12,799 bases of DNA from IMG/VR virus record IMGVR_UViG_3300042806_000475, one strand, 5' to 3'. This DNA is from a virus. Both the position numbers and the translations under genes were made by a program. The notes beneath the pieces are model-generated. The model did not search any database, was not told the DNA's origin, and saw only the letters and a list, made by a program, of their open reading frames with translations. How positions within the stretch are numbered: the first letter of the stretch is position 1; the number at the start of each line of letters is the position of its first letter. Shown here piece by piece: positions 2,264 to 11,594 of the stretch.

Positions 2264-2428
2264 ATGTTTAAGAACTGGAAAACATCATTATTTGGCCTAG
2301 GTGCCGTAATTACTGGGGTTGCAACTGTATTAAAAGGTGATTTGCCTAGCGGTATTACAGCCATTTTAAGCGGTTTAGGTTTATTTGCAGCAAAGGACGC
2401 AGATATTAATTTAAATAACCGTCCATAA
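2264..2428 (+). CDS. Two-TM holin candidate (54 aa), absent from the ORF track
   Basis: Hand translation: MFKNWKTSLFGLGAVITGVATVLKGDLPSGITAILSGLGLFAAKDADINLNNRP. It has two hydrophobic segments. Stop TAA 2426-2428 overlaps the lysozyme ATG at 2428 (TAATG). Confidence 0.55.
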   Translation: MFKNWKTSLFGLGAVITGVATVLKGDLPSGITAILSGLGLFAAKDADINLNNRP

Positions 2429-2964
2429 TGACTAGCCAAACCAAAAAAATATTGGTGGTTACAGTTGTGGCGTTAATCTTATTAAGTAGCACAATGGCAA
2501 TAGGAGCAAAGGCCGAGGAATTGATAAAAAAATTTGAGGCCGACGATATAAATAAGTATTTAAGGGCTTACCTAGATCCAGTTGGAATACCAACACTGGG
2601 CTATGGAAGCACCTATAATTACGACGCAAAGCGTAAAGTACAACTAGGTGATAGTATAACCCAGGAAAAGGCTATTGAGTGGTTAAGAAAGGAAACAAAG
2701 GCAATAGTGCCAAAGATCAAAGCACTGGTTAAGGTACCTATAAACCAAAACCAGTTAGATAGTTTAACTAGCTTTGTTTACAACGTCGGGATCGGCGCTT
2801 TTCAATCTAGCACACTTTTAAGATTACTTAATAGTGGCGCACCTAAAAGTGAGGTAGCGGCGCAATTTGATCGCTGGAACAAAGGAACGGTAAACGGCCA
2901 AAAATTAGTTTTACCAGGCCTAGTAAGGCGCAGAAGTGAAGAAAAAGCACTATTTTTAGCATAA
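2428..2964 (+). CDS. GH24 phage lysozyme (endolysin) with an N-terminal signal peptide or SAR anchor
   Basis: The motif KFEADDINKYLRAYLDPVGIPTLGYGST matches the lysozyme Glu...Asp-x5-Thr (YxDxxGxxTxGYG) signature, and NQNQLDSLTSFVYNVGIGAF lies downstream. The N-terminus KKILVVTVVALILLSSTMAIGAKA is hydrophobic with an AxA-like site. Confidence 0.85.
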   Translation: MTSQTKKILVVTVVALILLSSTMAIGAKAEELIKKFEADDINKYLRAYLDPVGIPTLGYGSTYNYDAKRKVQLGDSITQEKAIEWLRKETKAIVPKIKALVKVPINQNQLDSLTSFVYNVGIGAFQSSTLLRLLNSGAPKSEVAAQFDRWNKGTVNGQKLVLPGLVRRRSEEKALFLA

Positions 2965-3012
2965 GCAAGCAAGTTGGTTAGATAAATTTCAATGGTCTAG
3001 TACAAAAAAGGA

Positions 3013-3041
3013 AGCCTGGTGTGTCTACACTGGGCTTTTTT
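3013..3041 (+). terminator. Rho-independent terminator closing the late unit (first of a tandem pair)
   Basis: agcctggtgt / acactgggct forms a 10-bp stem (two G-U pairs) with loop gtct, followed by a T6 run. Confidence 0.7.
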
Positions 3042-3074
3042 AAAATTATTTGTCGGTTCCTTTAATACCTACTA

Positions 3075-3106
3075 AGCCTAACATTTTATAAATGTTGGGC
3101 TTTTTT
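3075..3106 (+). terminator. Rho-independent terminator (second of the tandem pair)
   Basis: agcctaacattt / aaatgttgggct forms a roughly 12-bp stem (one G-U pair) with a short AT loop, followed by a T6 run. Confidence 0.7.
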
Positions 3107-3184: not shown

Positions 3185-3454
3185 ATGCAATTAAAAACAG
3201 ACAGTAAGATCCTGGGCGAAATAGCCAGCTTACAACAAAAAATTTCACGCCTGGAAGCATTACGGGCCTTATCACCTTACGAACAATGCACATTTTTTTT
3301 CTATTCTAGTTCTGGTAAGTTTTTATCATTAAACGAAAATGATTTGCCGTTTGATCTTTCTTTTGAAGTAAGGATCCTAATAGATGCGGCCCTAGAACAT
3401 TACCAGCACGAAATTAAAAGATTAGAAAATAGTTTCCAATGCGAAGAAAATTAA
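3185..3454 (+). CDS. Hypothetical early protein (89 aa)
   Basis: First ORF after the tandem terminators and candidate promoter. Helical N- and C-terminal segments; no recognised motif. Confidence 0.6.
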   Translation: MQLKTDSKILGEIASLQQKISRLEALRALSPYEQCTFFFYSSSGKFLSLNENDLPFDLSFEVRILIDAALEHYQHEIKRLENSFQCEEN

Positions 3455-3579
3455 TAAGATTTATTGCAGTAATTTTTTTTATTGTAATATCTATACCAGT
3501 TTGCATTTTAACTTATGCAGCTTCACATATTTTTTATTACACATACAGATTATTAAATTTATTAAAACTAAACAAATGA
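3439..3579 (+). CDS. Tiny single-pass membrane protein (46 aa), absent from the ORF track
   Basis: Hand translation: MRRKLIRFIAVIFFIVISIPVCILTYAASHIFYYTYRLLNLLKLNK. It overlaps the previous gene by 16 nt. Its TGA (3577-3579) overlaps the next ATG (3576) as ATGA. Confidence 0.45.
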   Translation: MRRKLIRFIAVIFFIVISIPVCILTYAASHIFYYTYRLLNLLKLNK

Positions 3580-3797
3580 AAAATGAGTATTTAAAAGATC
3601 TAGCCGACGGCTTCGGATCAATGAACAAAGTTGAAAACAAAAAAAACGACAAGCAACCCGATTACCAGGGCTACTTTAAAGCAGACGGAAAATTGTTTGA
3701 AATTGCTGGCTGGGTAAAGATTAGCAAAGCTAGCAATAAGTATTTATCTATTGCAGTTAAGGAATTTACTGAAAAGCTATCTAATAACGAATTATGA
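3576..3797 (+). CDS. Small early protein (73 aa) with a DUF736-like motif
   Basis: Internal Met of the 3501 ORF chosen as start: the upstream 25 codons are hydrophobic junk and overlap the 3439 ORF. NKKNDKQPDYQGYFKADGKLFEIAGWVKISKASNKYLSIAV resembles the (S/N)DxxPxx...E(I)GAAWxKxSxxxxxYL(S/G) pattern of DUF736 proteins (from memory). Confidence 0.55.
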   Translation: MKNEYLKDLADGFGSMNKVENKKNDKQPDYQGYFKADGKLFEIAGWVKISKASNKYLSIAVKEFTEKLSNNEL

Positions 3798-3973
3798 TAA
3801 ACGCTATAAATACATTAGAAAATTATATCAAAAAACTTGATCTAATTATAGAAGAAAACAATGAAACAATCTATAATAACAATGTTATTATAGAAGAATT
3901 AGAAAGAGAAAATGTAACATATATAGAAAAAAAAGAAGAAATTTTAAACGCCATTGAAAAACTAAAAAAATGA
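3794..3973 (+). CDS. Small acidic coiled-coil protein (59 aa), absent from the ORF track
   Basis: Hand translation: MINAINTLENYIKKLDLIIEENNETIYNNNVIIEELERENVTYIEKKEEILNAIEKLKK. It has ATGA overlaps at both ends (3794-3797 and 3970-3973). Confidence 0.5.
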   Translation: MINAINTLENYIKKLDLIIEENNETIYNNNVIIEELERENVTYIEKKEEILNAIEKLKK

Positions 3974-4236
3974 AAATAGACAAAAACGCACCAGCTTTTC
4001 CAGTTATGCCAGTTCAAGACCAATTCGGGCGCCTAGTGGCACCGATACCGGGCCTAACAAAATACGAACACGTTTTATTGCAGATCCTTTGCGCAAAAGA
4101 AATGCAAAATAATCACAGTAAAATAGGACTATCAACACTTTTAAGAGAATGTGAAACACTTGCAAACGAATATTTTTTAACCTTAGAAAAATTACAAAAT
4201 GAAAACGAAAATAATGTTAAGGTTATTGAGATGTAG
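3970..4236 (+). CDS. Hypothetical early protein (88 aa)
   Basis: ORF is ATGA-coupled to the upstream gene. The APAFPV...GLTKYEHVLLQIL segment resembles a motif seen in small phage proteins of unknown function (from memory). Confidence 0.6.
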   Translation: MKIDKNAPAFPVMPVQDQFGRLVAPIPGLTKYEHVLLQILCAKEMQNNHSKIGLSTLLRECETLANEYFLTLEKLQNENENNVKVIEM

Positions 4237-4305
4237 CCCCAACGTACAAGCTGTAATAGCCCTAATTATTGCAGGAATTTTAATCGGCCTTTTACAAAGG
4301 ATCTA

Positions 4306-5310
4306 ATGATAAACGGACAAGACAACAAATTAACTTTACCAGAAAAATTAGCACAGAGAAAATACAAGCCCGATTTTATACCCCCCCCAAGCCAGGTAAT
4401 ATTCACTATTGACGATAAACCAATTGGAACGATCCAAAATTTTATCGTTTTTAGTGGATTGCCTAAGGCGGGCAAAAGTACTTTTCTAGCCGCTGCAATA
4501 GCTTCTGCATTTCAACCTGGTGATGTGTTTGGAATGAAAGTGCATTTCCCAGAAGGAAGGCGCAGAATAGCCTATTTTGACACTGAAAGCAGCGATTTTG
4601 ATTTTTACAGACAAGTTAATAAAATAAAGCATTTTAGCAATTTAAACAGCTTACCTACCTGGGCTGACTGTTTTACAGTGCGCGAGGACGGCCCAGGCGA
4701 AATAAGGGCCTTAATCGTTAATTATTTAGAAAATAACCCTGACTGCCCGATCGTAATAATTGACGGCCTTTTGGATCTTATTTTTGACTACAATAGTGAA
4801 ATAGAGAGCCGCAAGCTGGTGAACTGGTTTAAAAAACTCACAAAAATATACAACTGTTTATTTGTTGGCGTACTTCACCAGGGCAAAGGACTAGGCGCAC
4901 AGACACTAGGACACTTAGGCTCAAATTGTGACCGCTGGGCTTCTAGCACCTTAGAAATAATAAAAGACAAAGACAAAAAGACGTTCACATTACAGCCTAG
5001 GTTTTTAAGAAGTTCGGAAGATTTTGATCCAGTCGTACTTATGAACATTGGCGGCAACTGGCAGCAAATATCTATTGAAGGTGAAAGCAAAAAAATTGAA
5101 ATAAAGCACCCAAAACAATTTACTGAACTAGATCATAAAAACATAATAAACCAGCTTATTTACGGCCCTACTAGCTACAAAGATTTAATTGCAGACATAC
5201 AGGAGCAGCACGCAAAAGGTATAAACTGGGCCAAGCAATTATGTAAGATCTGGATTGATAAAAAATACATCTATAAAAACGAAAATAATTTATATGAAAA
5301 AAGGTATTAA
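4306..5310 (+). CDS. RecA-fold P-loop ATPase, RepA/DnaB-like replicative helicase candidate (AAA_25-like)
   Basis: Walker A is GLPKAGKST (aa 51-59, nt 4456-4482). Walker B-like is CPIVIIDGLLDL. A helicase-type VGVLHQGKG motif follows. It is the only NTPase motif found in the genome and lies in the early module. Confidence 0.6.
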   Translation: MINGQDNKLTLPEKLAQRKYKPDFIPPPSQVIFTIDDKPIGTIQNFIVFSGLPKAGKSTFLAAAIASAFQPGDVFGMKVHFPEGRRRIAYFDTESSDFDFYRQVNKIKHFSNLNSLPTWADCFTVREDGPGEIRALIVNYLENNPDCPIVIIDGLLDLIFDYNSEIESRKLVNWFKKLTKIYNCLFVGVLHQGKGLGAQTLGHLGSNCDRWASSTLEIIKDKDKKTFTLQPRFLRSSEDFDPVVLMNIGGNWQQISIEGESKKIEIKHPKQFTELDHKNIINQLIYGPTSYKDLIADIQEQHAKGINWAKQLCKIWIDKKYIYKNENNLYEKRY

Positions 5311-5560
5311 AACAGAATATCATTTTACTGATAATTTTTGGCACGAATATTTTAATATAAAAATTGTAACAAGAAGAAAAAAAGCTATTTGTAAATATTG
5401 CAATAAAGAAATAGAAGTAAATAATGAAGCTGGTATAGTAAATTACAAATTTGGACATGATTTACCAGATAATTTTTTTGACATACATTTTGATGGCTGT
5501 ATTGGTATAGTACATATTTTATGCGTTAATAAATTTGTAAAAAATGAAAAAAGATACTAA
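5294..5560 (+). CDS. Cys/His-containing small protein (88 aa), possible zinc-binding
   Basis: Internal Met MKKGIKTEYHF... chosen as start, which overlaps the ATPase gene by 17 nt instead of 56. Contains CKYCN ... HFDGC ... HILC. Very AT-rich segment. Confidence 0.5.
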   Translation: MKKGIKTEYHFTDNFWHEYFNIKIVTRRKKAICKYCNKEIEVNNEAGIVNYKFGHDLPDNFFDIHFDGCIGIVHILCVNKFVKNEKRY

Positions 5561-5741
5561 AAGATTTATAGCTTATATGCTAATGAACAAACATTTTAAG
5601 CTAGTAAAGAAAGGCGCTAACTGGCGTATAGAATACAACGGCGTTTTATTACAGCCAGACGATATAGAATTTTTAAAGTTAATTGCAAAAAAAAGCGGCC
5701 AAAAATTTGACCGCCTGGACAAAACAATTAACCCTAATTAA
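5544..5741 (+). CDS. Hypothetical basic protein (65 aa)
   Basis: ORF overlaps the upstream gene by 17 nt. No recognised motif. Confidence 0.5.
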   Translation: MKKDTKRFIAYMLMNKHFKLVKKGANWRIEYNGVLLQPDDIEFLKLIAKKSGQKFDRLDKTINPN

Positions 5742-5777
5742 CTGCTTATTTTCCTTTCACGACAAAGATATATAAAA

Positions 5778-5960
5778 ATGGAATATTACACAGCAATTAT
5801 TTTTTTTGAGGATCACAAAGAAATAACCCCTAAAAAATATCGGAATATAAACCGAGTTGAAAATTTTATTGAGTTTGCCCGCAAAGTTGGTGGACATTAT
5901 GTAAATTTATACGAGAAAAAAACGAAACGATTTTATTGCCGCGTCTGGCTGAACAATTAA
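5778..5960 (+). CDS. Hypothetical protein (60 aa), last gene of the early module
   Basis: ORF is preceded by a CTTTCAC...AAAAATG leader and followed by a terminator. Confidence 0.5.
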   Translation: MEYYTAIIFFEDHKEITPKKYRNINRVENFIEFARKVGGHYVNLYEKKTKRFYCRVWLNN

Positions 5961-5993: not shown

Positions 5994-6016
5994 ACCAGCC
6001 TAGTGCTGGTTTTTTT
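5994..6016 (+). terminator. Rho-independent terminator closing the early module
   Basis: accagc / gctggt forms a 6-bp stem with loop ctagt, followed by a T7 run. Confidence 0.65.
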
Positions 6017-6041: not shown

Positions 6042-6109
6042 GTGGTTTAATTAAAGGTGAAAAGAAAATAATTTAAACCGGTTTAAGTGGTTTAAAATAG
6101 GTGGTTTAA
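6042..6109 (+). repeat. Iteron-like cluster: three direct GTGGTTTAA repeats plus a 14-bp palindrome TTAAACCGGTTTAA
   Basis: GTGGTTTAA occurs at 6042-6050, 6087-6095 and 6101-6109. The perfect palindrome lies at 6073-6086 and shares the GGTTTAA core. A further inverted pair, ttaaac/gtttaa, lies at 6148-6164. Confidence 0.6.
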
Positions 6110-6198: not shown

Positions 6199-6229
6199 AT
6201 TGTATTTTCAAGTAATTTTTGTAACTTTG
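6199..6229 (+). promoter_or_regulatory. Candidate Bacteroidota-type promoter of the late unit (-33-like ATTG, -7 box TAACTTTG)
   Basis: TAACTTTG at 6222-6229 fits TAnnTTTG. ATTG at 6199-6202 lies 19 nt upstream. The ATG at 6237 is so close that the mRNA would have almost no leader. Confidence 0.35.
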
Positions 6230-6236
6230 TAGCAGT

Positions 6237-6680
6237 ATGGCAGCAAAAAAATGGCTAGCAGCCCTAGTTGGCGCAGCAGCAGTTTACTGGGTTTACAGCA
6301 AGTACCGCTTTTCGCAAGGCGTTAGCTTTGTAATATCCAGGGTGGGCCTAGGTGGATCATTTTTAGATCCACAGATCAATATAGAAATAACTATTAATAA
6401 CCCAACAGCATTTACAACAGAATTAAGCAATTTAAGGGCGCAGCTATATTTAGCAAGCGGTACAAAGGTTGCTGATGTTTATTACAACAATAGAACGGTA
6501 ATTTTAGCTAATAGCCAGGCTATTTTGCCACTGGTAGCGGTTACCACACTAGAAGGGGCAATAACTTCAATTCGCGAACTTATTAAGGATAAAAAGGCTG
6601 ATTTTAGATTAGCTGGTACGGCTCAGGTTGACGGCGTTTTATTACCTTTTGACATAAAATACAGTTTTAATGGTTTCTAA
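6237..6680 (+). CDS. N-terminally anchored membrane protein with a LEA_2/WHy-like beta-sandwich domain
   Basis: TM segment WLAALVGAAAVYWVY. INIEITINNPTAFTTELSNLRAQLYLASGTKVADV ... ADFRLAGTAQVDGVLLPFDIKYSF follows the LEA_2 pattern (NPN-type strand, then y-x-l-x-l-x-G, then a C-terminal y-x-l-x-G ... pf) from memory. Confidence 0.5.
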   Translation: MAAKKWLAALVGAAAVYWVYSKYRFSQGVSFVISRVGLGGSFLDPQINIEITINNPTAFTTELSNLRAQLYLASGTKVADVYYNNRTVILANSQAILPLVAVTTLEGAITSIRELIKDKKADFRLAGTAQVDGVLLPFDIKYSFNGF

Positions 6681-7632
6681 AAACGCAGTTTTACAAAAAC
6701 TGGCGCCTTTCCAGAATTATAAAAAGGTAGTTAGTAGTGATCAAACCGTTACTGATATTATAGATGGAATTGTTGAAACGCACTATAAGTACCAGGACGA
6801 ATACGATAAGATCAGTGATTATTTTGTCGGTGAAAGTGAACTAGAAACGGCGAGAAATATTTTTAACTTTTTAAAGTCCAGTGTACCTTACTTTATTGAA
6901 AGTAACAATAAACAGACATTAAGAAGCCCTAGCGCCATTTTAGCTTTAAGACAGGGCGCTGACTGTAAAAGTTACGCGCTGTTTGCAAATGGGGTGCTAG
7001 ATAGTTTAAACAGAAAAGGTATTTTAGAAGTGCCACTAGCGTTTAGATTTGCGGGATATAAAGATACAACCAGGGAGCCACAGCACGTTTTTGCTGTTAT
7101 GTACCCAGGAACAAAAAATGAAATCTGGATTGATCCTGTATTATCTAGATTTAACGAGAAAAGACAACCTAGTTTTTACAAAGATAAAAAAATAAAAATG
7201 GCACTAATTGCATTAAGCGGCGTTGGTTACACAGCAAGCGACAAACGCGCAGAAATGGAAGCGTATAGAGATAAACTTGTTAGAGATCGCGACAGATTAT
7301 TACAAGCTGGCGTAATTACGCCAGGATCTAGTAAAGAGCTTCAATATAAAGTAGCAATTAATAAAGTAACTGTTGCGCTTCAAGATTTACCAAGTGTGTC
7401 TGGAATTGGCGAATTTGACTGGCAAAATGCGTTTAGTAGTTTAGTAACAGCGGCTCCGGATATTATAAGTGCGTCGCGTCCTGGTGGCAGTTATGTACCA
7501 GGCCAGTATCAACAGCAGCCGTTTATGCCAATGCAGCAACAGCCTGAGCAAAGATCTGGAATTAGCACAAACACAATTTTGCTAATAGGTGGTGCGGCAC
7601 TAGCAGCGTTTTTAATCTTTAAGAAAAAGTAA
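6670..7632 (+). CDS. Transglutaminase-like (papain-fold) Cys-His-Asp protein with a Gln-rich linker and C-terminal TM anchor; candidate virion lytic/entry enzyme
   Basis: QGADCKSYALFA supplies the Cys, QHVFAV lies 40 residues later (His), and WIDPV lies 16 residues after that (Asp). This matches the GxxCxx[FY]A / H[AS][WF] / DP signature and spacing. The C-terminus has PGQYQQQPFMPMQQQPEQ followed by ILLIGGAALAAFLIFKKK. Confidence 0.6.
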   Translation: MVSKNAVLQKLAPFQNYKKVVSSDQTVTDIIDGIVETHYKYQDEYDKISDYFVGESELETARNIFNFLKSSVPYFIESNNKQTLRSPSAILALRQGADCKSYALFANGVLDSLNRKGILEVPLAFRFAGYKDTTREPQHVFAVMYPGTKNEIWIDPVLSRFNEKRQPSFYKDKKIKMALIALSGVGYTASDKRAEMEAYRDKLVRDRDRLLQAGVITPGSSKELQYKVAINKVTVALQDLPSVSGIGEFDWQNAFSSLVTAAPDIISASRPGGSYVPGQYQQQPFMPMQQQPEQRSGISTNTILLIGGAALAAFLIFKKK

Positions 7633-8288
7633 TGATAATAAGATGTAGAGGGTGTGGCTGGAAGTGGAATTTATCCAAAGGCGGTTATGATCCTTACATT
7701 TGCCATAAATGCGGTATGAATAATAAAAGATATTATAATAACAGAAATTTAGGAGTTGTGCCACTGGTAGCAGTAGCGGCTGCTAAGCCTATTTCTGCGC
7801 TTGTTTCTGCTGGTATTGCTGCCTTACCTGGTATAATTAGCTTTATTAGAAATATATCTGCGCGTCCAGCTGGCGAAGCACGCGACGTAATTAATGAAGT
7901 TAAAAAGGCTATTTCTAATACAGACGCTAGAAATAGATTAGCGCTAGTAGTAGCAGCGAGCCAAAGAAATTTTAAGGCCGCAGATGTAGACGTTAATGAA
8001 TTATTATACTGGTACCGCCAAAATTACCCAGAAGATTATAAACAATTATTGCCAGAAGATAAACTTTATTGGAATACTTATCTGGATAATTATAGAACTA
8101 GATTTTTATTACAAAGGCCCGATTTGCAAAATAATTTTTTAAATAGATCTTATTTTACAAAGGAGCAAATTAATTATAAGCCAGAAGTGCCAGGATCACC
8201 AGAAACGCAAAAAGCTGGAATGAATATTTTAGTTACACTGGCTATTGTTGGCGCTGGTATTTTCGCACTATCAAAAATGAAAAAATAA
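7632..8288 (+). CDS. Zinc-ribbon (CxxC-x16-CxxC) membrane protein
   Basis: The N-terminus is MIIRCRGCGWKWNLSKGGYDPYICHKCG. Hydrophobic segments are VVPLVAVAAAKPISALVSAGIAALPGIISFI and, at the C-terminus, ILVTLAIVGAGIFAL. TAATG overlaps occur at both ends. Confidence 0.6.
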   Translation: MIIRCRGCGWKWNLSKGGYDPYICHKCGMNNKRYYNNRNLGVVPLVAVAAAKPISALVSAGIAALPGIISFIRNISARPAGEARDVINEVKKAISNTDARNRLALVVAASQRNFKAADVDVNELLYWYRQNYPEDYKQLLPEDKLYWNTYLDNYRTRFLLQRPDLQNNFLNRSYFTKEQINYKPEVPGSPETQKAGMNILVTLAIVGAGIFALSKMKK

Positions 8289-8923
8289 TGACCGCAGCAC
8301 AAAAAGCAGCAAAGGCAAATTTCAAAAAGGCCATTGAGTACAGAAAAAAAACTGGCGTTTCTTTAAAAGAAGCGTTTGCGCACGTTTACGGTAAAAAGAA
8401 AGTAGGCGCGGCACCTAAAAAGAAGGCAGCAAAAAAGGCAGCACCTAAAAAGGCGGCTAAAAAAGTTGTAAAGAAGGCAGCAAAAAAAGCAGCACCTAAA
8501 AAAGTAGCTAGAAAAGTTGTAAAAAAAGCGGCACCTAAAAGATCTGTAAGTTTACATAAAGACACTAAAAGCCATAACGTTAATATTCGTGTAATTTCTG
8601 GATATAAAAAAATTGGAAATTTAGATGAAATTAATAAGGGTGATATTTTAGTTTCACATTGGGGATATGATCAAACAAACGTAGATTTTTTTTATGTAGT
8701 TAAAAAAACTGGTTTGGGAGTTAGTTTAATACCAATGGGCGAAAAAATTGTTGAATATAAGGATATGTCTGGTAGAGTTGTACCAGGTGAGCCTAATTAT
8801 ACTGCAAAGCCAATGAATAGAAAAATAAAAAAATATACTGGCGGAGTATATGTAAGAATTAATAGCTTTTCATATGCTAGAAAGTGGAACGGACAACCAG
8901 AATATTTTTCAAATTATGCGTAA
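8288..8923 (+). CDS. Histone-H1-like Lys/Ala/Pro-repeat DNA-binding protein with an unrelated C-terminal domain
   Basis: Residues 38-85 read GAAPKKKAAKKAAPKKAAKKVVKKAAKKAAPKKVARKVVKKAAPKR. The C-terminal ~125 aa are not low-complexity (HKDTKSHNVNIRVISGYKK...). Confidence 0.6.
   Translation: MTAAQKAAKANFKKAIEYRKKTGVSLKEAFAHVYGKKKVGAAPKKKAAKKAAPKKAAKKVVKKAAKKAAPKKVARKVVKKAAPKRSVSLHKDTKSHNVNIRVISGYKKIGNLDEINKGDILVSHWGYDQTNVDFFYVVKKTGLGVSLIPMGEKIVEYKDMSGRVVPGEPNYTAKPMNRKIKKYTGGVYVRINSFSYARKWNGQPEYFSNYA
8411..8542 (+). repeat. In-frame imperfect tandem repeats encoding the AAPKK units
   Basis: gcacctaaaa recurs at 8411, 8441, 8492 and 8531. The spacings of 30, 51 and 39 nt are all multiples of 3. 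Confidence 0.8.
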
Positions 8924-9239: not shown

Positions 9240-9665
9240 ATGCGTAGAAGAAAAGCAGCAAAAAAAAGCCCTAGACGTCGCAGAATGTCTGGAATTGGCA
9301 AAGTAGGCGGCGCAGCGTCATCTGTACTTTATACAGTAGCAGGAGCAGCAGCAGCCCAATTAGTTGGTAAATTTTTACCAGCAGCAACAAACGATAAGAT
9401 CAAAGCAGCAGTTCCAGTTGCAGTAGGTCTTTTCTTACCAAAATTTGTAAAAGGAGCAGCGGGCCAAGGTCTTGCAGCTGGTATGATCGCCGTAGGTGGT
9501 TTAAAACTTGTACAATCTTTTGGAGTGTTAAACGGTATCGGTGCGCTAGCTAGTGATGTAAATTACAAGTTACCAGCAGTTGCAGCATACTACAACCGCG
9601 AAGGATTAGTTGACAAAAGCTATATGACGCCGTCAATAGCTGGCCTGGACGAAGAAGGCTGTTAA
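9240..9665 (+). CDS. Arg-rich N-terminus plus Gly/Ala-rich multi-pass membrane protein (virion membrane / DNA-tether candidate)
   Basis: MRRRKAAKKSPRRRRMSG is followed by hydrophobic segments VLYTVAGAAAAQLVGKFL, AAVPVAVGLFLP and GLAAGMIAVGGL. Confidence 0.6.
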   Translation: MRRRKAAKKSPRRRRMSGIGKVGGAASSVLYTVAGAAAAQLVGKFLPAATNDKIKAAVPVAVGLFLPKFVKGAAGQGLAAGMIAVGGLKLVQSFGVLNGIGALASDVNYKLPAVAAYYNREGLVDKSYMTPSIAGLDEEGC

Positions 9666-9675
9666 TTATTTTCTT

Positions 9676-9694
9676 TTCACCTTTATTAAAAAAA
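9676..9694 (+). promoter_or_regulatory. Conserved intergenic motif TTCACCTTTA-TTAAAAAAA upstream of the candidate capsid gene
   Basis: The 10-mer TTCACCTTTA is shared exactly with 12564-12573. Both copies follow a TAA stop plus a pyrimidine run and precede an A-run. Confidence 0.4.
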
Positions 9695-9711: not shown

Positions 9712-10371
9712 ATGGCAACTCAAATGGGAAGCAGAATGGTTTTCGAAAATGCGAAAACCTTAGTGCGCAGTTTAGGTTATAGTGTAGAACACGCTAAATT
9801 GACGCAGTCATATTTACGCAGTGAAGTAGCTTTAAGCACTTCAATTGCAAACTATCATTTACCTGTACTTGTAAACGACACTCAAAACGGTGCAAGCCGC
9901 GTAAACGAGAAGCGTTTAAACCTACAAGATATTTTTGTAACAACAGAAATTGCAGTTTTAATTGGTGTTGGTAACGCTACAAACACAAAAGCGCCGCTTT
10001 ATACTTATCCAAATGGCGTTGTGTTTACTTCTGCCACTGATGATGATCTTTTAAGTATTTACAACGGTTATTTAAACCTTACAATTAATAACGAACAAGT
10101 ATTACCAGCTTGGGACGTTTTACGCCACTACTTTGTGCCACAAACACAGGGCGGCGTAGGTATTACAGCGCAAACTGTTTTTCCAGTGGATCAGTGGGCT
10201 GCAAGCCAAGATGGTTTCTACCCAGTTGAGCCAGGTATTGTGATGAACGGTGCGGCAAACATCAATTTCCAGCTTACTGCAAATGGTGCGCCAGCAACAG
10301 TTTTATCGAATAGCTTTATTTGTGTTATTCAGCGCGGTATCTTATGCCAAAACGTTACTACTGTTAAATAG
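9712..10371 (+). CDS. Candidate major capsid protein (219 aa, beta-rich, soluble)
   Basis: No TM segment and a beta-strand-like alternation throughout (IFVTTEIAVLIGV, YLNLTINN, NINFQLTA, FICVIQRGI). It is preceded by the conserved motif and a long A-rich leader. It is followed by the only internal terminator in the late unit, which is typical of the most abundant virion protein. Confidence 0.45.
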   Translation: MATQMGSRMVFENAKTLVRSLGYSVEHAKLTQSYLRSEVALSTSIANYHLPVLVNDTQNGASRVNEKRLNLQDIFVTTEIAVLIGVGNATNTKAPLYTYPNGVVFTSATDDDLLSIYNGYLNLTINNEQVLPAWDVLRHYFVPQTQGGVGITAQTVFPVDQWAASQDGFYPVEPGIVMNGAANINFQLTANGAPATVLSNSFICVIQRGILCQNVTTVK

Positions 10372-10412
10372 TATTAATGATATGTGCCTGGCGGGCCTTA
10401 ATCGCCGCCGCC

Positions 10413-10441
10413 GACGGTCGGATATTACCGTCACTTTTTTT
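10413..10441 (+). terminator. Rho-independent terminator/attenuator inside the late unit, within a GC-rich island
   Basis: gacggt / accgtc forms a 6-bp GC-rich stem with an 8-nt loop cggatatt, then ac and a T7 run. An additional GGCGG/CCGCC pairing is possible at 10390-10409. Confidence 0.6.
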
Positions 10442-10460
10442 AATTTATTAATTTTAAGAT

Positions 10461-10871
10461 ATGCGTATCAAAAGGTTTGAAGCAGTTGAAATAAACGTGC
10501 CTAGTGGATCTACACTAACACGCTTTTATTTTCCAGATCTGCCACAATTAAGAAACGCAAAGATTGAAGCTGTACAAGTTTATGTAGCTGGCGCAATTAG
10601 TGCAACACCTTTAACTGGATCAACCCCAGTTACAGTTGCGGACGCTAAAAAGTCATTTTTAACTTTGTACCAGGGTGATTTGCAATTAATATATAATATA
10701 CCAATACTAGGTTTAAACAATATTCAGGAAGGTACTACAACGCCTTTTGTTTTTGAATTGCCTAGTATGAACGATATTGATATTAGCTGGACAAAATCCT
10801 TTGTATCTTTGCCATCAGCACTAGCAACTACAAACGTTGCGTATAGTTTTGGCGTTTATTACTATTTGTAA
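10461..10871 (+). CDS. Candidate second capsid / penton protein (136 aa, jelly-roll-sized, beta-rich)
   Basis: Soluble and beta-rich (RFYFPDL, KIEAVQVYVAG, FLTLYQGDLQLIYNIPILG, VAYSFGVYYYL). Its size is typical of single-jelly-roll penton proteins. It is adjacent to the 219-aa candidate. Confidence 0.4.
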   Translation: MRIKRFEAVEINVPSGSTLTRFYFPDLPQLRNAKIEAVQVYVAGAISATPLTGSTPVTVADAKKSFLTLYQGDLQLIYNIPILGLNNIQEGTTTPFVFELPSMNDIDISWTKSFVSLPSALATTNVAYSFGVYYYL

Positions 10872-10883
10872 AATTTTTATGTT

Positions 10884-11594
10884 ATGGCAGCTTTTAGGCC
10901 CGAAATATTTACCATTGATGAAGTCGTAAACTTTTACGACGCAGCAGAAGGAAGCGAATATAAAATTTTTGCTGGCGTTAACCCAACGCCGCAATATTTG
11001 CGTTACAACTTTGTTGGCGAAAAAGAAATAGGACGCCAGGAGCTAGTTAACGCGCTTACACAGTTGCGCAATAACATAGAAAATTACAATCCGTATTTAA
11101 TACAAGTTATTAGCGAGGGAAATACTGGTAGGGGCAAGAAAAAAGAAAGTCCTGTTCTCACCAGTATTTCTTTTCAGCTAAATAGGCCTCAATCAATGTT
11201 ACCAATGCAAGCAATGGCTGGGATCGGTAGCCCTAGAACAGAAATGTTACTAGAAAAGCTAGTTGAGCAAAACGCTATGTTACAAAGTAGGATAGCAGCT
11301 ATTGAAGCAATGGACGAACTAGAAGAAGAAGAAGAAGAAGCACCAAAAAGCCCAATAGATCAAATGTTGAGCAGTCCGCAAGTTCAGGAAGCATTAATAG
11401 CTGGCGTAATGTCTTTAATGTCTGGACTAATTACAAAAGGCGGTGCGCCGACGGCAATAGCTGGGATAGATGATGAAGCAGAAGCAACAGAAATTTTAAG
11501 ATCATTAATGAACAAAGGCGTTACAATAGATCATTTAAGAAAATTAAATGAAATGTCTAGCAGTAAACTTTCTTCATTGTTATTTATGTTATAA
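10884..11594 (+). CDS. Acidic/coiled-coil protein (236 aa); scaffold or assembly-factor candidate
   Basis: The central helical segment TEMLLEKLVEQNAMLQSRIAAIEAMDELEEEEEEAP is followed by a weakly hydrophobic segment ALIAGVMSLMSGLI. Confidence 0.5.
   Translation: MAAFRPEIFTIDEVVNFYDAAEGSEYKIFAGVNPTPQYLRYNFVGEKEIGRQELVNALTQLRNNIENYNPYLIQVISEGNTGRGKKKESPVLTSISFQLNRPQSMLPMQAMAGIGSPRTEMLLEKLVEQNAMLQSRIAAIEAMDELEEEEEEAPKSPIDQMLSSPQVQEALIAGVMSLMSGLITKGGAPTAIAGIDDEAEATEILRSLMNKGVTIDHLRKLNEMSSSKLSSLLFML

Follow-up and report, generated by a model that had tools for sequence, protein, structure and literature searches.

We report that two adjacent genes, A and B, in the 12,799-nucleotide stretch of DNA analyzed here (the window) are predicted to encode proteins that each fold as a single jelly roll. 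In the reading that we favor, and to which we assign an even chance of being right as a whole, A is the major capsid protein (MCP) of a tailless virus and lies on an internal membrane, and its jelly-roll partner B, present in smaller numbers, is most probably the penton. The parts of this reading differ in strength: A is very likely a protein of the capsid shell, B is likely a jelly-roll protein of the virion, and the specific assignment of B to the penton is at best evenly balanced. The two genes are as follows:

9712–10371, + strand: gene A, ATG start, 219 aa, predicted to have an N-terminal helix and a single jelly roll
10461–10871, + strand: gene B, ATG start, 136 aa, predicted to be a compact jelly roll of eight strands

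A preliminary description of the window had placed both open reading frames at exactly these positions and had proposed them as capsid candidates; they are indeed adjacent, with a spacer of 89 nt. The window begins and ends with the same 127 nt (bases 1–127 are identical to 12673–12799), and the genome is therefore a circle of 12,672 bp, which in the favored reading is the complete genome of a tailless bacterial virus. Given the many full-length homologues of each protein (723 for A and 635 for B in a protein database clustered at 90%) and the presence of both genes in 65 of 65 related genomes, which are near-complete and about 12–13 kb in size, A and B are real genes. Conservation among these 65 genomes is highest for A, with a mean identity of 86%; the corresponding value for B is 80.5%. 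The A family, which comprises 615 clusters at 50% identity and is thus very large, is unannotated in every library searched: neither the single sequence nor a profile of 106 sequences had a match in Pfam, PHROGs, NCBIfam, or the PDB. B likewise returned only noise from the same four libraries, both as a single sequence and as a profile of 45 sequences.

An AlphaFold2 model of A, built on a diverse alignment of 106 sequences, had a pLDDT of 91.6 and a pTM of 0.88. Its elements follow one another in the order helix (residues 4–20), three strands (29–40, 47–49, and 74–86), helix (107–117), and five strands (120–125, 128–135, 169–179, 184–189, and 201–213). The topology of both proteins was read from the order of the strands together with the lists of fold matches, and on this basis A is predicted to be one jelly roll, not two. 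The model of B, which rests on a shallow alignment (at least 63% identity), is of moderate confidence (pLDDT 75, pTM 0.67) and has eight strands. The expectation that both proteins would be jelly rolls was thus borne out by the models, and the other outcome that had been considered, folds of some different kind, did not occur. On one point the preliminary description went too far: it had called A beta-rich throughout, but the model contains the two helices listed above.

Searches with the two models pointed to icosahedral viruses, and it should be borne in mind that the matches were weak, with no PDB match at E < 1e-3, TM scores of 0.2–0.5, and high RMSDs. About 38 of the best 50 PDB fold matches of A are viral jelly-roll capsid proteins. 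The match of highest probability (0.97) was chain 6oj0_A of SPV1 (TM 0.39/0.46), and the match of best E-value (5e-3) was VP17 of P23-77 (3zmn_A), at a TM of only 0.22 and a probability of 0.35; the FLiP penton (8a06) and P3 of PR772 were also among the PDB matches. In BFVD, A had 11 matches at E < 1e-3, including MCP domains of NCLDVs, and VP4 of SPV1 was matched as well. For B, the best PDB E-value was again that of 6oj0_A (probability 0.84, TM 0.35/0.29). Its top matches also included the coat proteins of CMV, CCMV, and PLRV, MCP domains of STIV and PR772 were matched with TMq values of 0.48–0.50, and PRD1 P5 and PR772 capsid chains were found as well; VP17 (3zmn_A) and the FLiP penton (8a06) were not among its best 50 PDB fold matches. 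VP17 of P23-77, a comparator that had been named in advance, was therefore recovered, if weakly, as were the FLiP penton and a PRD1-type P3. Nor did a competing capsid gene emerge, as the preliminary description had allowed it might: no other open reading frame matched a capsid family in Pfam, PHROGs, or NCBIfam, or, for those queried against it, in the PDB. Family searches of the open reading frames gave no match to packaging ATPases, to double jelly-roll proteins, or to the traits of Duplodnaviria (an HK97-fold MCP, terminase, and portal), and Pfam and PHROGs gave no match to a microvirus capsid protein or Rep. In the Microviridae, the F-type single jelly-roll capsid protein contains large insertions, the Rep is of the phiX type, and genomes measure about 4.5–6.5 kb, as compared with 12.7 kb here.

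One of the systems closest to the favored reading is SPV1 of the Portogloboviridae, in which a single jelly-roll MCP (VP4) and a single jelly-roll penton are arranged on an internal membrane and whose chain 6oj0_A heads the PDB matches of A by probability and those of B by E-value. A layout of this kind, with a single jelly-roll MCP of about 180–220 aa and a smaller jelly-roll vertex protein, fits the best reading of A and B. SPV1 has a circular genome, no recognizable packaging ATPase, and a basic DNA-condensing protein, to which a Lys/Ala-rich protein of 211 aa encoded here at 8288–8923 may be compared; only the C-terminal domain of that protein has matches, to hypothetical proteins of large tailed phages. 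SPV1 differs, however, in its archaeal (Sulfolobales) host, its genome of about 20 kb, and its unrelated replication genes, and neither A nor B has sequence similarity to SPV1 proteins, the TM scores being only 0.29–0.46. An archaeal host is not what we find here: the genome encodes a phage lysozyme (endolysin; PF00959, 2.9e-38), and relatives are found on contigs of bacterial metagenome-assembled genomes, one of them adjoining hemH/hemE/maf/coaE.

Could A instead be a double jelly-roll MCP like those of FLiP and PhiCjT23, only very small, with B as its penton and the virus an ordinary divergent member of that group? The preliminary description had argued from size, taking P2 of PM2 (269 aa) to be the smallest double jelly-roll MCP, but this does not hold, since P5 of PhiCjT23 has 239 residues (PMC9719478), just 20 more than A. 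The Finnlakeviridae-type phages FLiP and PhiCjT23, together with the metagenomic FLiP group, also have small circular genomes, come from freshwater or Bacteroidota-associated settings, and lack a packaging ATPase, as here, and the M13-like G2P Rep of the FLiP group (PMC5894146) is shared by two close relatives of the present genome (L165 and L172). We nevertheless consider this alternative very improbable. In the model of A, which is confident, about nine strands, several of them 11–13 residues long, follow one another as they do in a single jelly roll, and the sixteen short strands of two are not seen; the MCPs of FLiP and PhiCjT23, by contrast, are double jelly rolls of 239 to about 300 aa. 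The MCPs of FLiP, PhiCjT23, and PM2 are absent from the best 50 PDB fold matches of A, its 106-sequence profile matched no PDB sequence, and it had neither a tblastn match in GenBank phages (50,697 records, in which the whole sequence also had no DNA match) nor a PHROG match. More broadly, the double jelly-roll MCP family was matched by no open reading frame, with structure prediction covering A and B. Moreover, in contrast to the FLiP group, this genome has an AAA_25/DnaB-like helicase-like protein, encoded in the early region, as its sole ATPase, and no rolling-circle Rep was matched in it by Pfam or PHROGs.

Signals around the two genes bear on how much of each protein would be made:

9675–9693, + strand: upstream motif TTTCACCTTTATTAAAAAA, ending 19 nt 5′ of the A start codon
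9694–9711, + strand: A-rich untranslated leader of gene A
10413–10441, + strand: intrinsic terminator or attenuator, with a GACGGT/ACCGTC stem (10413–10432) and 8-nt loop followed by ACTTTTTTT
12563–12581, + strand: second copy of the motif, CTTCACCTTTAATTAAAAA, 5′ of the 92-aa open reading frame and the spike gene

The motif, of the form YTTCACCTTTAWTWAAAAA, was found three times against 0.27 expected, the third match (at 6044–6062) being on the minus strand with two mismatches. Of 94 distinct variants of the region 5′ of A, 64 retained CACCTTT, and all 94 were at least 50% A in their last 30 nt. The conserved motif and A-rich leader noted previously are thus upheld by comparison among relatives, and the motif probably acts as a strong signal for late transcription (a promoter) or expression. 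Likewise, the claim that the late unit contains a single terminator agrees with our finding that only this hairpin and T-run is convincing there on the + strand. Among close relatives the distinct versions of the A–B spacer all contained the terminator (102 of 102), and its stem occurred in 22 variants with compensatory changes. It was also present in four of seven distant lineages; in the other three it was lacking, and A and B were tightly packed. In our proposal, the CACCTTT motif and the A-rich leader would drive strong late expression of A, and the terminator would allow only part of the transcription to read on, so that B would be made in smaller amounts. A conserved terminator would thus favor unequal amounts of the two proteins, that is, an MCP and a minor protein, over equal ones, and the arrangement would be a clean example of the control of stoichiometry by attenuation. 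As to the proteins themselves, A would stand as a single jelly roll, presumably upright, with its N-terminus facing the lipid membrane, and B would be a penton or other vertex-associated capsid protein. The size of B fits known pentons, that of FLiP having 147 aa. The penton P31 of PRD1 has 126 aa. More generally, the separate single jelly-roll pentons of double jelly-roll viruses (about 125–150 aa) agree with B in size and, subject to the moderate quality of its model, in predicted fold; among them, FLiP has a separate small jelly-roll penton, the one matched by A. B also resembles the pentons of PRD1-type viruses (P31 and the PR772 vertex) in being compact and in its fold matches to PRD1-type proteins, but it has no sequence similarity to them and has tandem paralogues in some lineages.

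These same data bear on a second alternative, which we regard as somewhat unlikely, namely, that A and B are both MCPs of pseudo-hexameric capsomers, either as heterodimers like VP16/VP17 or as unfused halves of a double jelly-roll-like protein, and that the penton is supplied by the 92-aa protein (j92, below) or by the N-terminus of the spike. B lies directly 3′ of A in all 11 distant loci examined, such that adjacent jelly-roll genes have stayed linked throughout, VP17 is the best match of A by PDB E-value, and in three distant lineages A and B are tightly packed without a terminator. The two proteins add up to 355 aa, the typical size of a double jelly-roll MCP. A further point in favor of two MCPs is that j92 belongs to the structural block and, in position and size, resembles a penton base. 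In the Helvetiavirae (Singelaviria; P23-77, SH1, HHIV-2, and the Simuloviridae), two upright single jelly-roll MCPs are encoded by adjacent genes, much as two adjacent predicted single jelly-roll genes, of unequal size, are found here, and in both cases the virion is likely to be rich in membrane proteins. The smaller MCP of the Helvetiavirae is the more abundant one. The order found here, with the large gene preceding the small one and a covarying terminator between them, suggests the opposite, and the conserved terminator itself argues for unequal expression. In addition, the match to VP17 is weak; a comparison of the A and B families with hhalign gave a probability of 1%, and hence there is no detectable paralogy between them; and the hallmark FtsK/HerA packaging ATPase was not found in the open reading frames. 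Pfam searches of the called genes of four relatives (L164, L165, L172, and L174) gave no match to an FtsK/HerA (A32-like) ATPase either, and relatives use rolling-circle Reps, unlike the Helvetiavirae, whose genomes are given as 16–31 kb, compared with 12.7 kb here.

The preferred reading, in which A is the MCP and B the minor partner, must also accommodate the genes at the junction of the circle:

12585–12799 and then 128–191, + strand: j92, the junction open reading frame, 92 aa; its stop codon (189–191) overlaps the ATG of the spike gene (191–193) in the sequence TAATG
191–1642, + strand: spike or fibre protein, 483 aa, with a mean coverage of only 0.58 among the 65 related genomes

The preliminary description had mentioned the 92-aa protein as a third vertex candidate, and it proves to be a conserved core protein that adjoins the spike. 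Homologues were found in 108 loci, with a mean identity of 78% over 104 near-full-length matches, and in seven distant lineages, in four of which j92 lies directly 5′ of the spike gene. This small beta-rich protein may serve as spike adaptor or penton base. Because it is conserved beside the spike, j92 competes with B for the role of penton base. The spike of PhiCjT23 carries a penton-base domain of 91 residues, and spikes are swapped in that system (PMC9719478), a situation like that of j92 and the exchangeable spike here; given this likeness in size and position, j92 could be the penton, in which case B would not have that role. In our proposal j92 and the exchangeable spike would instead complete a vertex formed by B. 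A match of j92 to designed “Ika” repeat proteins, in which no single stretch passed alone, was treated as an artefact of repeats or composition. At the position of the spike, relatives carry a beta-helix/pectate-lyase protein, a PTL_trimer protein, or a protein of 700 aa. The 483-aa protein was rejected as an MCP; it varies and has been exchanged among lineages, as a spike would be expected to do. Two distant lineages have tandem duplicates of B, and a simple penton would not call for such a duplication.

The remaining late proteins that concern us are the following:

6237–6680, + strand: LEA_2-like beta-sandwich protein (LEA_2, 5.7e-5), which begins the conserved structural block and is kept in distant lineages
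6670–7632, + strand: transglutaminase-like protein, 320 aa, with weak matches to DUF553/Transglut_core and a C-terminal hydrophobic segment, kept in distant lineages
9240–9665, + strand: gly141, with an Arg/Lys-rich N-terminus and then a Gly/Ala-rich hydrophobic region, directly 5′ of A
10884–11594, + strand: p236, directly 3′ of B, with an acidic stretch, conserved in distant lineages

Two of these were considered as MCPs and rejected: the 320-aa protein, in view of its weak transglutaminase-like matches and its C-terminal hydrophobic segment, and p236, whose sequence was read as helical and acidic and which had no family or PDB match. The protein gly141 is the second most conserved (mean identity 83%), occurs in each of the 11 distant loci studied, and has a weak PHROG match to holins; it is probably a membrane protein of the virion. 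Several late proteins have hydrophobic, membrane-span-like segments, and the virion probably contains an internal membrane.

A third alternative is that A and B are beta-sandwich proteins associated with the virion or its membrane in a particle that has no icosahedral shell, for example, on the surface of a pleomorphic membrane-bounded particle. Among 150 representatives of the A family, 17 have an N-terminal extension, which in 16 of the 17 contains one or two hydrophobic, membrane-span-like segments (in L172 the extension and A form one single open reading frame), and segments of this kind are not usual in shell proteins, although in the favored reading they speak for a link between A and the membrane. 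In BFVD, the match of A that ranks second (probability 1.0) comes from Haloarcula hispanica pleomorphic virus 4. The weakness of the fold matches, the packaging ATPase not found by family search, and the hydrophobic segments of the late proteins point in the same direction. We nevertheless judge this alternative to be quite improbable. Most fold matches of both A and B are icosahedral capsid proteins, the conservation of A and its strong expression signals are typical of an MCP, and the spike, the adaptor-like j92, and the endolysin are in keeping with a lytic icosahedral phage like PM2 or FLiP.

Turning to the group as a whole, the block gly141–A–B–p236 and j92 are retained down to 31% identity in A, while the replication genes are swapped; rolling-circle Reps are found in relatives. 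The A family occurs in hundreds of contigs from lake metagenomes; in IMG/VR no related loci were found with two distant A representatives (P0372 and P0282). These look like widespread, undescribed tailless bacterial viruses that lack a known type of MCP, and the literature searched contained no description of them; the group appears to consist of viruses and proviruses of roughly 12–13 kb that are separate from known ones, with provirus-like copies of the L164 and L171 types. Membrane-containing tailless phages are abundant in water, and very few have been isolated. The known bacterial ones have either a double jelly-roll MCP or, in the case of Thermus phages, two single jelly-roll MCPs and a packaging ATPase. 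If confirmed, the favored reading would give bacterial viruses a further, new type of capsid architecture, similar to that of the archaeal virus SPV1, would make A a marker gene for these viruses in metagenomes, and would be relevant to the origin of double jelly-roll capsids from single jelly rolls. A bolder proposal, which we consider unlikely, is that the group is a lineage outside the established realms, with a membrane-containing icosahedral capsid of single jelly rolls, no packaging ATPase, and plasmid-like rolling-circle modules. A and B would then be unfused jelly rolls of one capsomer, a “pre-fusion” state of the double jelly roll, or the virus would be a bacterial counterpart of the Portogloboviridae. 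The contexts of that lineage are Bacteroidota-like and alphaproteobacterial.

Finally, we note that the –7 motif of Bacteroidetes, TAnnTTTG, was found 26 times as compared with 23 expected and hence shows no overall enrichment; one copy (6222–6229) lies just 5′ of the first late gene.

The proteins put forward in the preliminary description as capsid components, A (a putative major capsid protein [MCP]) and B (a putative penton or second MCP), are encoded by adjacent genes at 9712-10371 (219 aa) and 10461-10871 (136 aa), as reported there. A 90% clustered database contained 723 homologues of A and 635 of B, nearly all full length, many of which sit on contigs of 12-13.8 kb. We fetched 65 near-complete related genomes from IMG/VR and JGI metagenomes and found both genes in all 65. 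Mean identity among these genomes was 86% for A, the highest of the genome, followed by 83% for gly141 (a Gly/Ala-rich protein, 9240-9665) and 80.5% for B. With 615 clusters at 50% identity (E <= 1e-3), A belongs to a large, diverse family. No part of the window matched the DNA of GenBank phages (50,697 records), and protein A had no tblastn match in the same records.

Bases 1-127 of the window are an exact repeat of 12673-12799, and this 127-nt terminal repeat indicates a circular assembly with a true length of 12,672 bp. The G+C content is about 36%, and every sizeable ORF lies on the plus strand, in the following arrangement.

Layout of the window
~3185-5960, plus strand: early block, small ORFs and a 334-aa AAA_25/DnaB-like ATPase
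5994-6010: terminator-like hairpin at the end of the early block
from 6237 through the junction to the phage lysozyme, plus strand: late block
2428-2964, plus strand: phage lysozyme (PF00959, 2.9e-38), last late gene
3008-3102: terminator-like hairpins after the lysozyme gene

Within the early block, a 101-aa ORF (5255-5560) with a TTG start and a weak BED zinc-finger match overlaps the ATPase gene at its 3' end; none of the 65 relatives has a homologue, and the ORF may be spurious. Within the late block, the N-terminal half of a 211-aa protein (8288-8923) consists of histone H1-like Lys/Ala/Pro repeats (AAKKAAPKK). Large tailed phages, for example Paraglaciecola Antarctic GD virus 1, share the C-terminal domain of this protein (phrog_37844, 5.6e-12), which is a candidate for condensing DNA.

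The expression signals attributed to gene A were borne out. The conserved upstream motif, YTTCACCTTTAWTWAAAAA, is located at 9675-9693, with a second copy (12563-12581) ahead of j92, a 92-aa ORF spanning the junction, and a third, degenerate copy on the minus strand at 6044; three matches were thus observed as against 0.27 expected. Among 94 distinct A-upstream variants of relatives, CACCTTT was kept in 64 and the A-rich leader was found in all. A terminator does follow A, as a hairpin at 10413-10432 and then ACTTTTTTT. All 102 distinct spacers from relatives have a hairpin and T-rich tail at this position, with 22 different stem sequences linked by compensatory changes (for example, GACGGT/ACCGTC, GAGGGT/ACCCTC, AGCGGT/ACCGCT, and GGTGGGG/CCCCACC). 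Its presence in every spacer, together with the compensatory changes in the stem, is strong evidence for an RNA hairpin under selection. A hairpin 3' of A was also present in four of seven distant lineages. The A-B spacer has a second hairpin, rich in GC (10391-10412, CTGGCGG...GCCGCC), immediately 5' of the terminator stem, and its counterpart recurs in most RNAfold predictions for related spacers.

The structure of A was predicted with AlphaFold2 from an alignment of 106 diverse members, yielding a confident model (pLDDT 91.6, pTM 0.88). The model has an N-terminal helix (4-20), a second helix (107-117), and strands at 29-40, 47-49, 74-86, 120-125, 128-135, 169-179, 184-189, and 201-213; a loop at about 140-168 is variable and of lower confidence. 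The elements of this predicted fold follow the order of a single eight-stranded jelly roll (B to I). Foldseek returned nothing from the PDB below E = 1e-3, and among its top 50 PDB matches we counted about 38 viral jelly-roll capsid proteins. The matches include P23-77 VP17, PBCV-1 Vp54, the FLiP penton, and PR772 P3, as well as circovirus, bromovirus, and picornavirus coats; SPV1 6oj0_A had a probability of 0.97 (TM 0.39/0.46). In BFVD there were 11 matches at E < 1e-3, NCLDV MCP domains among them, with SPV1 VP4 lower in the list (E 5.9e-3). The model of B, from a shallow alignment (40 sequences at at least 63% identity), is of moderate quality (pLDDT 75, pTM 0.67) and has eight strands and a short helix (59-64). 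Here too SPV1 6oj0_A heads the fold matches, together with bromovirus, cucumovirus, and luteovirus coats, and individual domains of the STIV and PR772 MCPs gave TMq values of 0.48-0.50. No sequence relationship between A and B was detectable, and neither matched PDB sequences, profiles included. Predicted folds and fold matches thus support the proposal that A and B are jelly-roll capsid proteins as far as it is testable computationally.

It had been argued that 219 aa is too short for any known double jelly-roll MCP. The strand pattern does favor a single roll, but the smallest known double jelly-roll MCP has 239 residues (PMC9719478), so length alone cannot exclude one for A. We rejected A as a minimal double jelly roll: its confident strand pattern is not of the sixteen-strand kind, and the FLiP, PhiCjT23, and PM2 MCPs are absent from the top 50 PDB matches. 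A rival explanation is that A and B build the capsomer jointly, in a Helvetiavirae-like manner or as a double jelly roll split in two. The two genes are strictly linked, the best PDB match of A by E-value is P23-77 VP17, and j92 matches in size and position the penton-base domain of PhiCjT23, which spans spike residues 1-91 (PMC9719478); yet the VP17 match is weak, a conserved terminator separates the two genes, and a packaging ATPase is lacking.

N-terminal extensions of 43-99 residues were present in 17 of 150 listed A-family representatives, and 16 of the 17 (about 11% of the representatives) have one or two hydrophobic, membrane-span-like segments (for example, P0260, P0270, P0285, P0297, P0353, and P0369). 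In the distant relative L172 (4340-5209) the extension lies within the single A ORF and is distinct from the gly141 homologue. Judged by sequence, the extended proteins are in effect membrane-anchored forms of this putative capsid protein, so that A would have its N-terminus at a membrane. Similar hydrophobic segments occur in several late proteins of the window. The anchored variants, and a pleolipovirus protein among the BFVD matches of A, have also suggested a non-icosahedral, membrane-bounded particle, although such a particle agrees less well with the fold-match lists and with the presence of a spike and a lysin.

In the mechanism we propose, A would be the major capsid protein, its single jelly roll standing upright on an internal lipid membrane with the N-terminus facing the lipid. 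The upstream motif and A-rich leader would drive high expression of A, and the terminator directly 3' of the gene would cut read-through, so that less B and downstream products would be made. Terminators 3' of the capsid gene of T7 and phiX174 likewise lower downstream expression. B, a predicted compact jelly roll of the size of known penton proteins, is most likely a penton or other vertex-associated shell protein, and the vertex would be completed by j92 and an exchangeable spike. We infer the shell-protein role from the predicted jelly roll and the A:B stoichiometry from the terminator.

Contigs with distant homologues of A (31-50% identity) were compared using phmmer, hmmsearch, and jackhmmer. 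A core block recurs, consisting of a LEA_2-like protein, a transglutaminase-like protein, gly141, A, B, p236 (10884-11594), and often p159; short loci do not all span it. Further along is a j92 homologue, directly upstream of the spike gene (in the window, a 483-aa protein, 191-1642) in the window and four distant loci.

Homologues of j92
window 12585-12799 + 128-191: directly 5' of spike
L165 4381-4674: directly 5' of spike
L171 8114-8359: directly 5' of spike
L172 7401-7694: directly 5' of spike
L174 6320-6670: directly 5' of spike
L164 12402-12698: 104-aa ORF between it and the spike gene

Judged by this recurrence, j92 is a core protein of the family. The spike is not conserved; relatives have beta-helix/pectate-lyase, PTL_trimer, or 370-700-aa proteins at its position. 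B is tandemly duplicated in two distant lineages (L171 6039-6491 and 6495-6944; L167 928-1374 and 1376-1804). The transglutaminase-like protein ranges from 320 to 780 aa across lineages (window 6670-7632; L166 1780-4122; L164 7806-9302), has a hydrophobic segment at its C-terminal end in the window, and could be a maturation protease or membrane-remodelling factor.

Across the window and its relatives, the same structural block is found alongside replication genes of three kinds.

Replication genes
AAA_25 helicase-like ATPase: window 4306-5310; also L169, L171
M13-like REP_ORF2-G2P Rep: L165 8511-9500; L172 197-1195
pC194-type Rep_1: L164 3544-4989; L174 10869-11828

An FtsK/HerA packaging ATPase was found in neither the window nor any relative compared. 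In L159, a complete relative (66% A identity), homologues of the ATPase, p88, and p60 (3564-5650) lie on the strand opposite the structural block; from this orientation, its early module is inverted.

By analogy, the window virus would work most like SPV1 (Portogloboviridae), in which a single jelly-roll MCP and a jelly-roll penton on a membrane resemble the layout predicted here for A and B. The genome style of the virus and its relatives resembles that of FLiP and PhiCjT23, with small circular genomes, no packaging ATPase, an M13-like Rep (in relatives of the window), and swapped spikes (PMC5894146, PMC9719478). The virus is not a member of any group compared, these three included: it has no sequence similarity to any, lacks a double jelly-roll MCP and a packaging ATPase, and has a bacterial rather than an archaeal context. 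A full-text literature search found no published description of this virus group, and none of the libraries searched names A or B. On these computational grounds, we rate the group as putatively membrane-associated, icosahedral, and jelly-roll-built, a known kind, the group itself being undescribed.

The window lineage probably infects a freshwater bacterium. There are weak hints of the phylum Bacteroidota: clear Shine-Dalgarno-like sequences were not seen upstream of window genes, leaders are rich in A, a single TAACTTTG motif occurs ahead of the first late gene, and an 84% identical fragment was binned with a Bacteroidetes MAG. Distant relatives are embedded in long bacterial contigs (L171, CBDDYR010000006.1, 40 kb, region 10755-15851; L164, a 77-kb contig, region 18032-18955); among such relatives, one adjoins hemH, hemE, maf, aroE, and coaE (Pelagibacterales MAG) and another lies near an rve integrase. 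No tRNA was found near them, and they may be integrated proviruses. Given the Pelagibacterales MAG contig on which a relative at 38% adjoins hemH, hemE, maf, and coaE, the wider family may be temperate and span several phyla.
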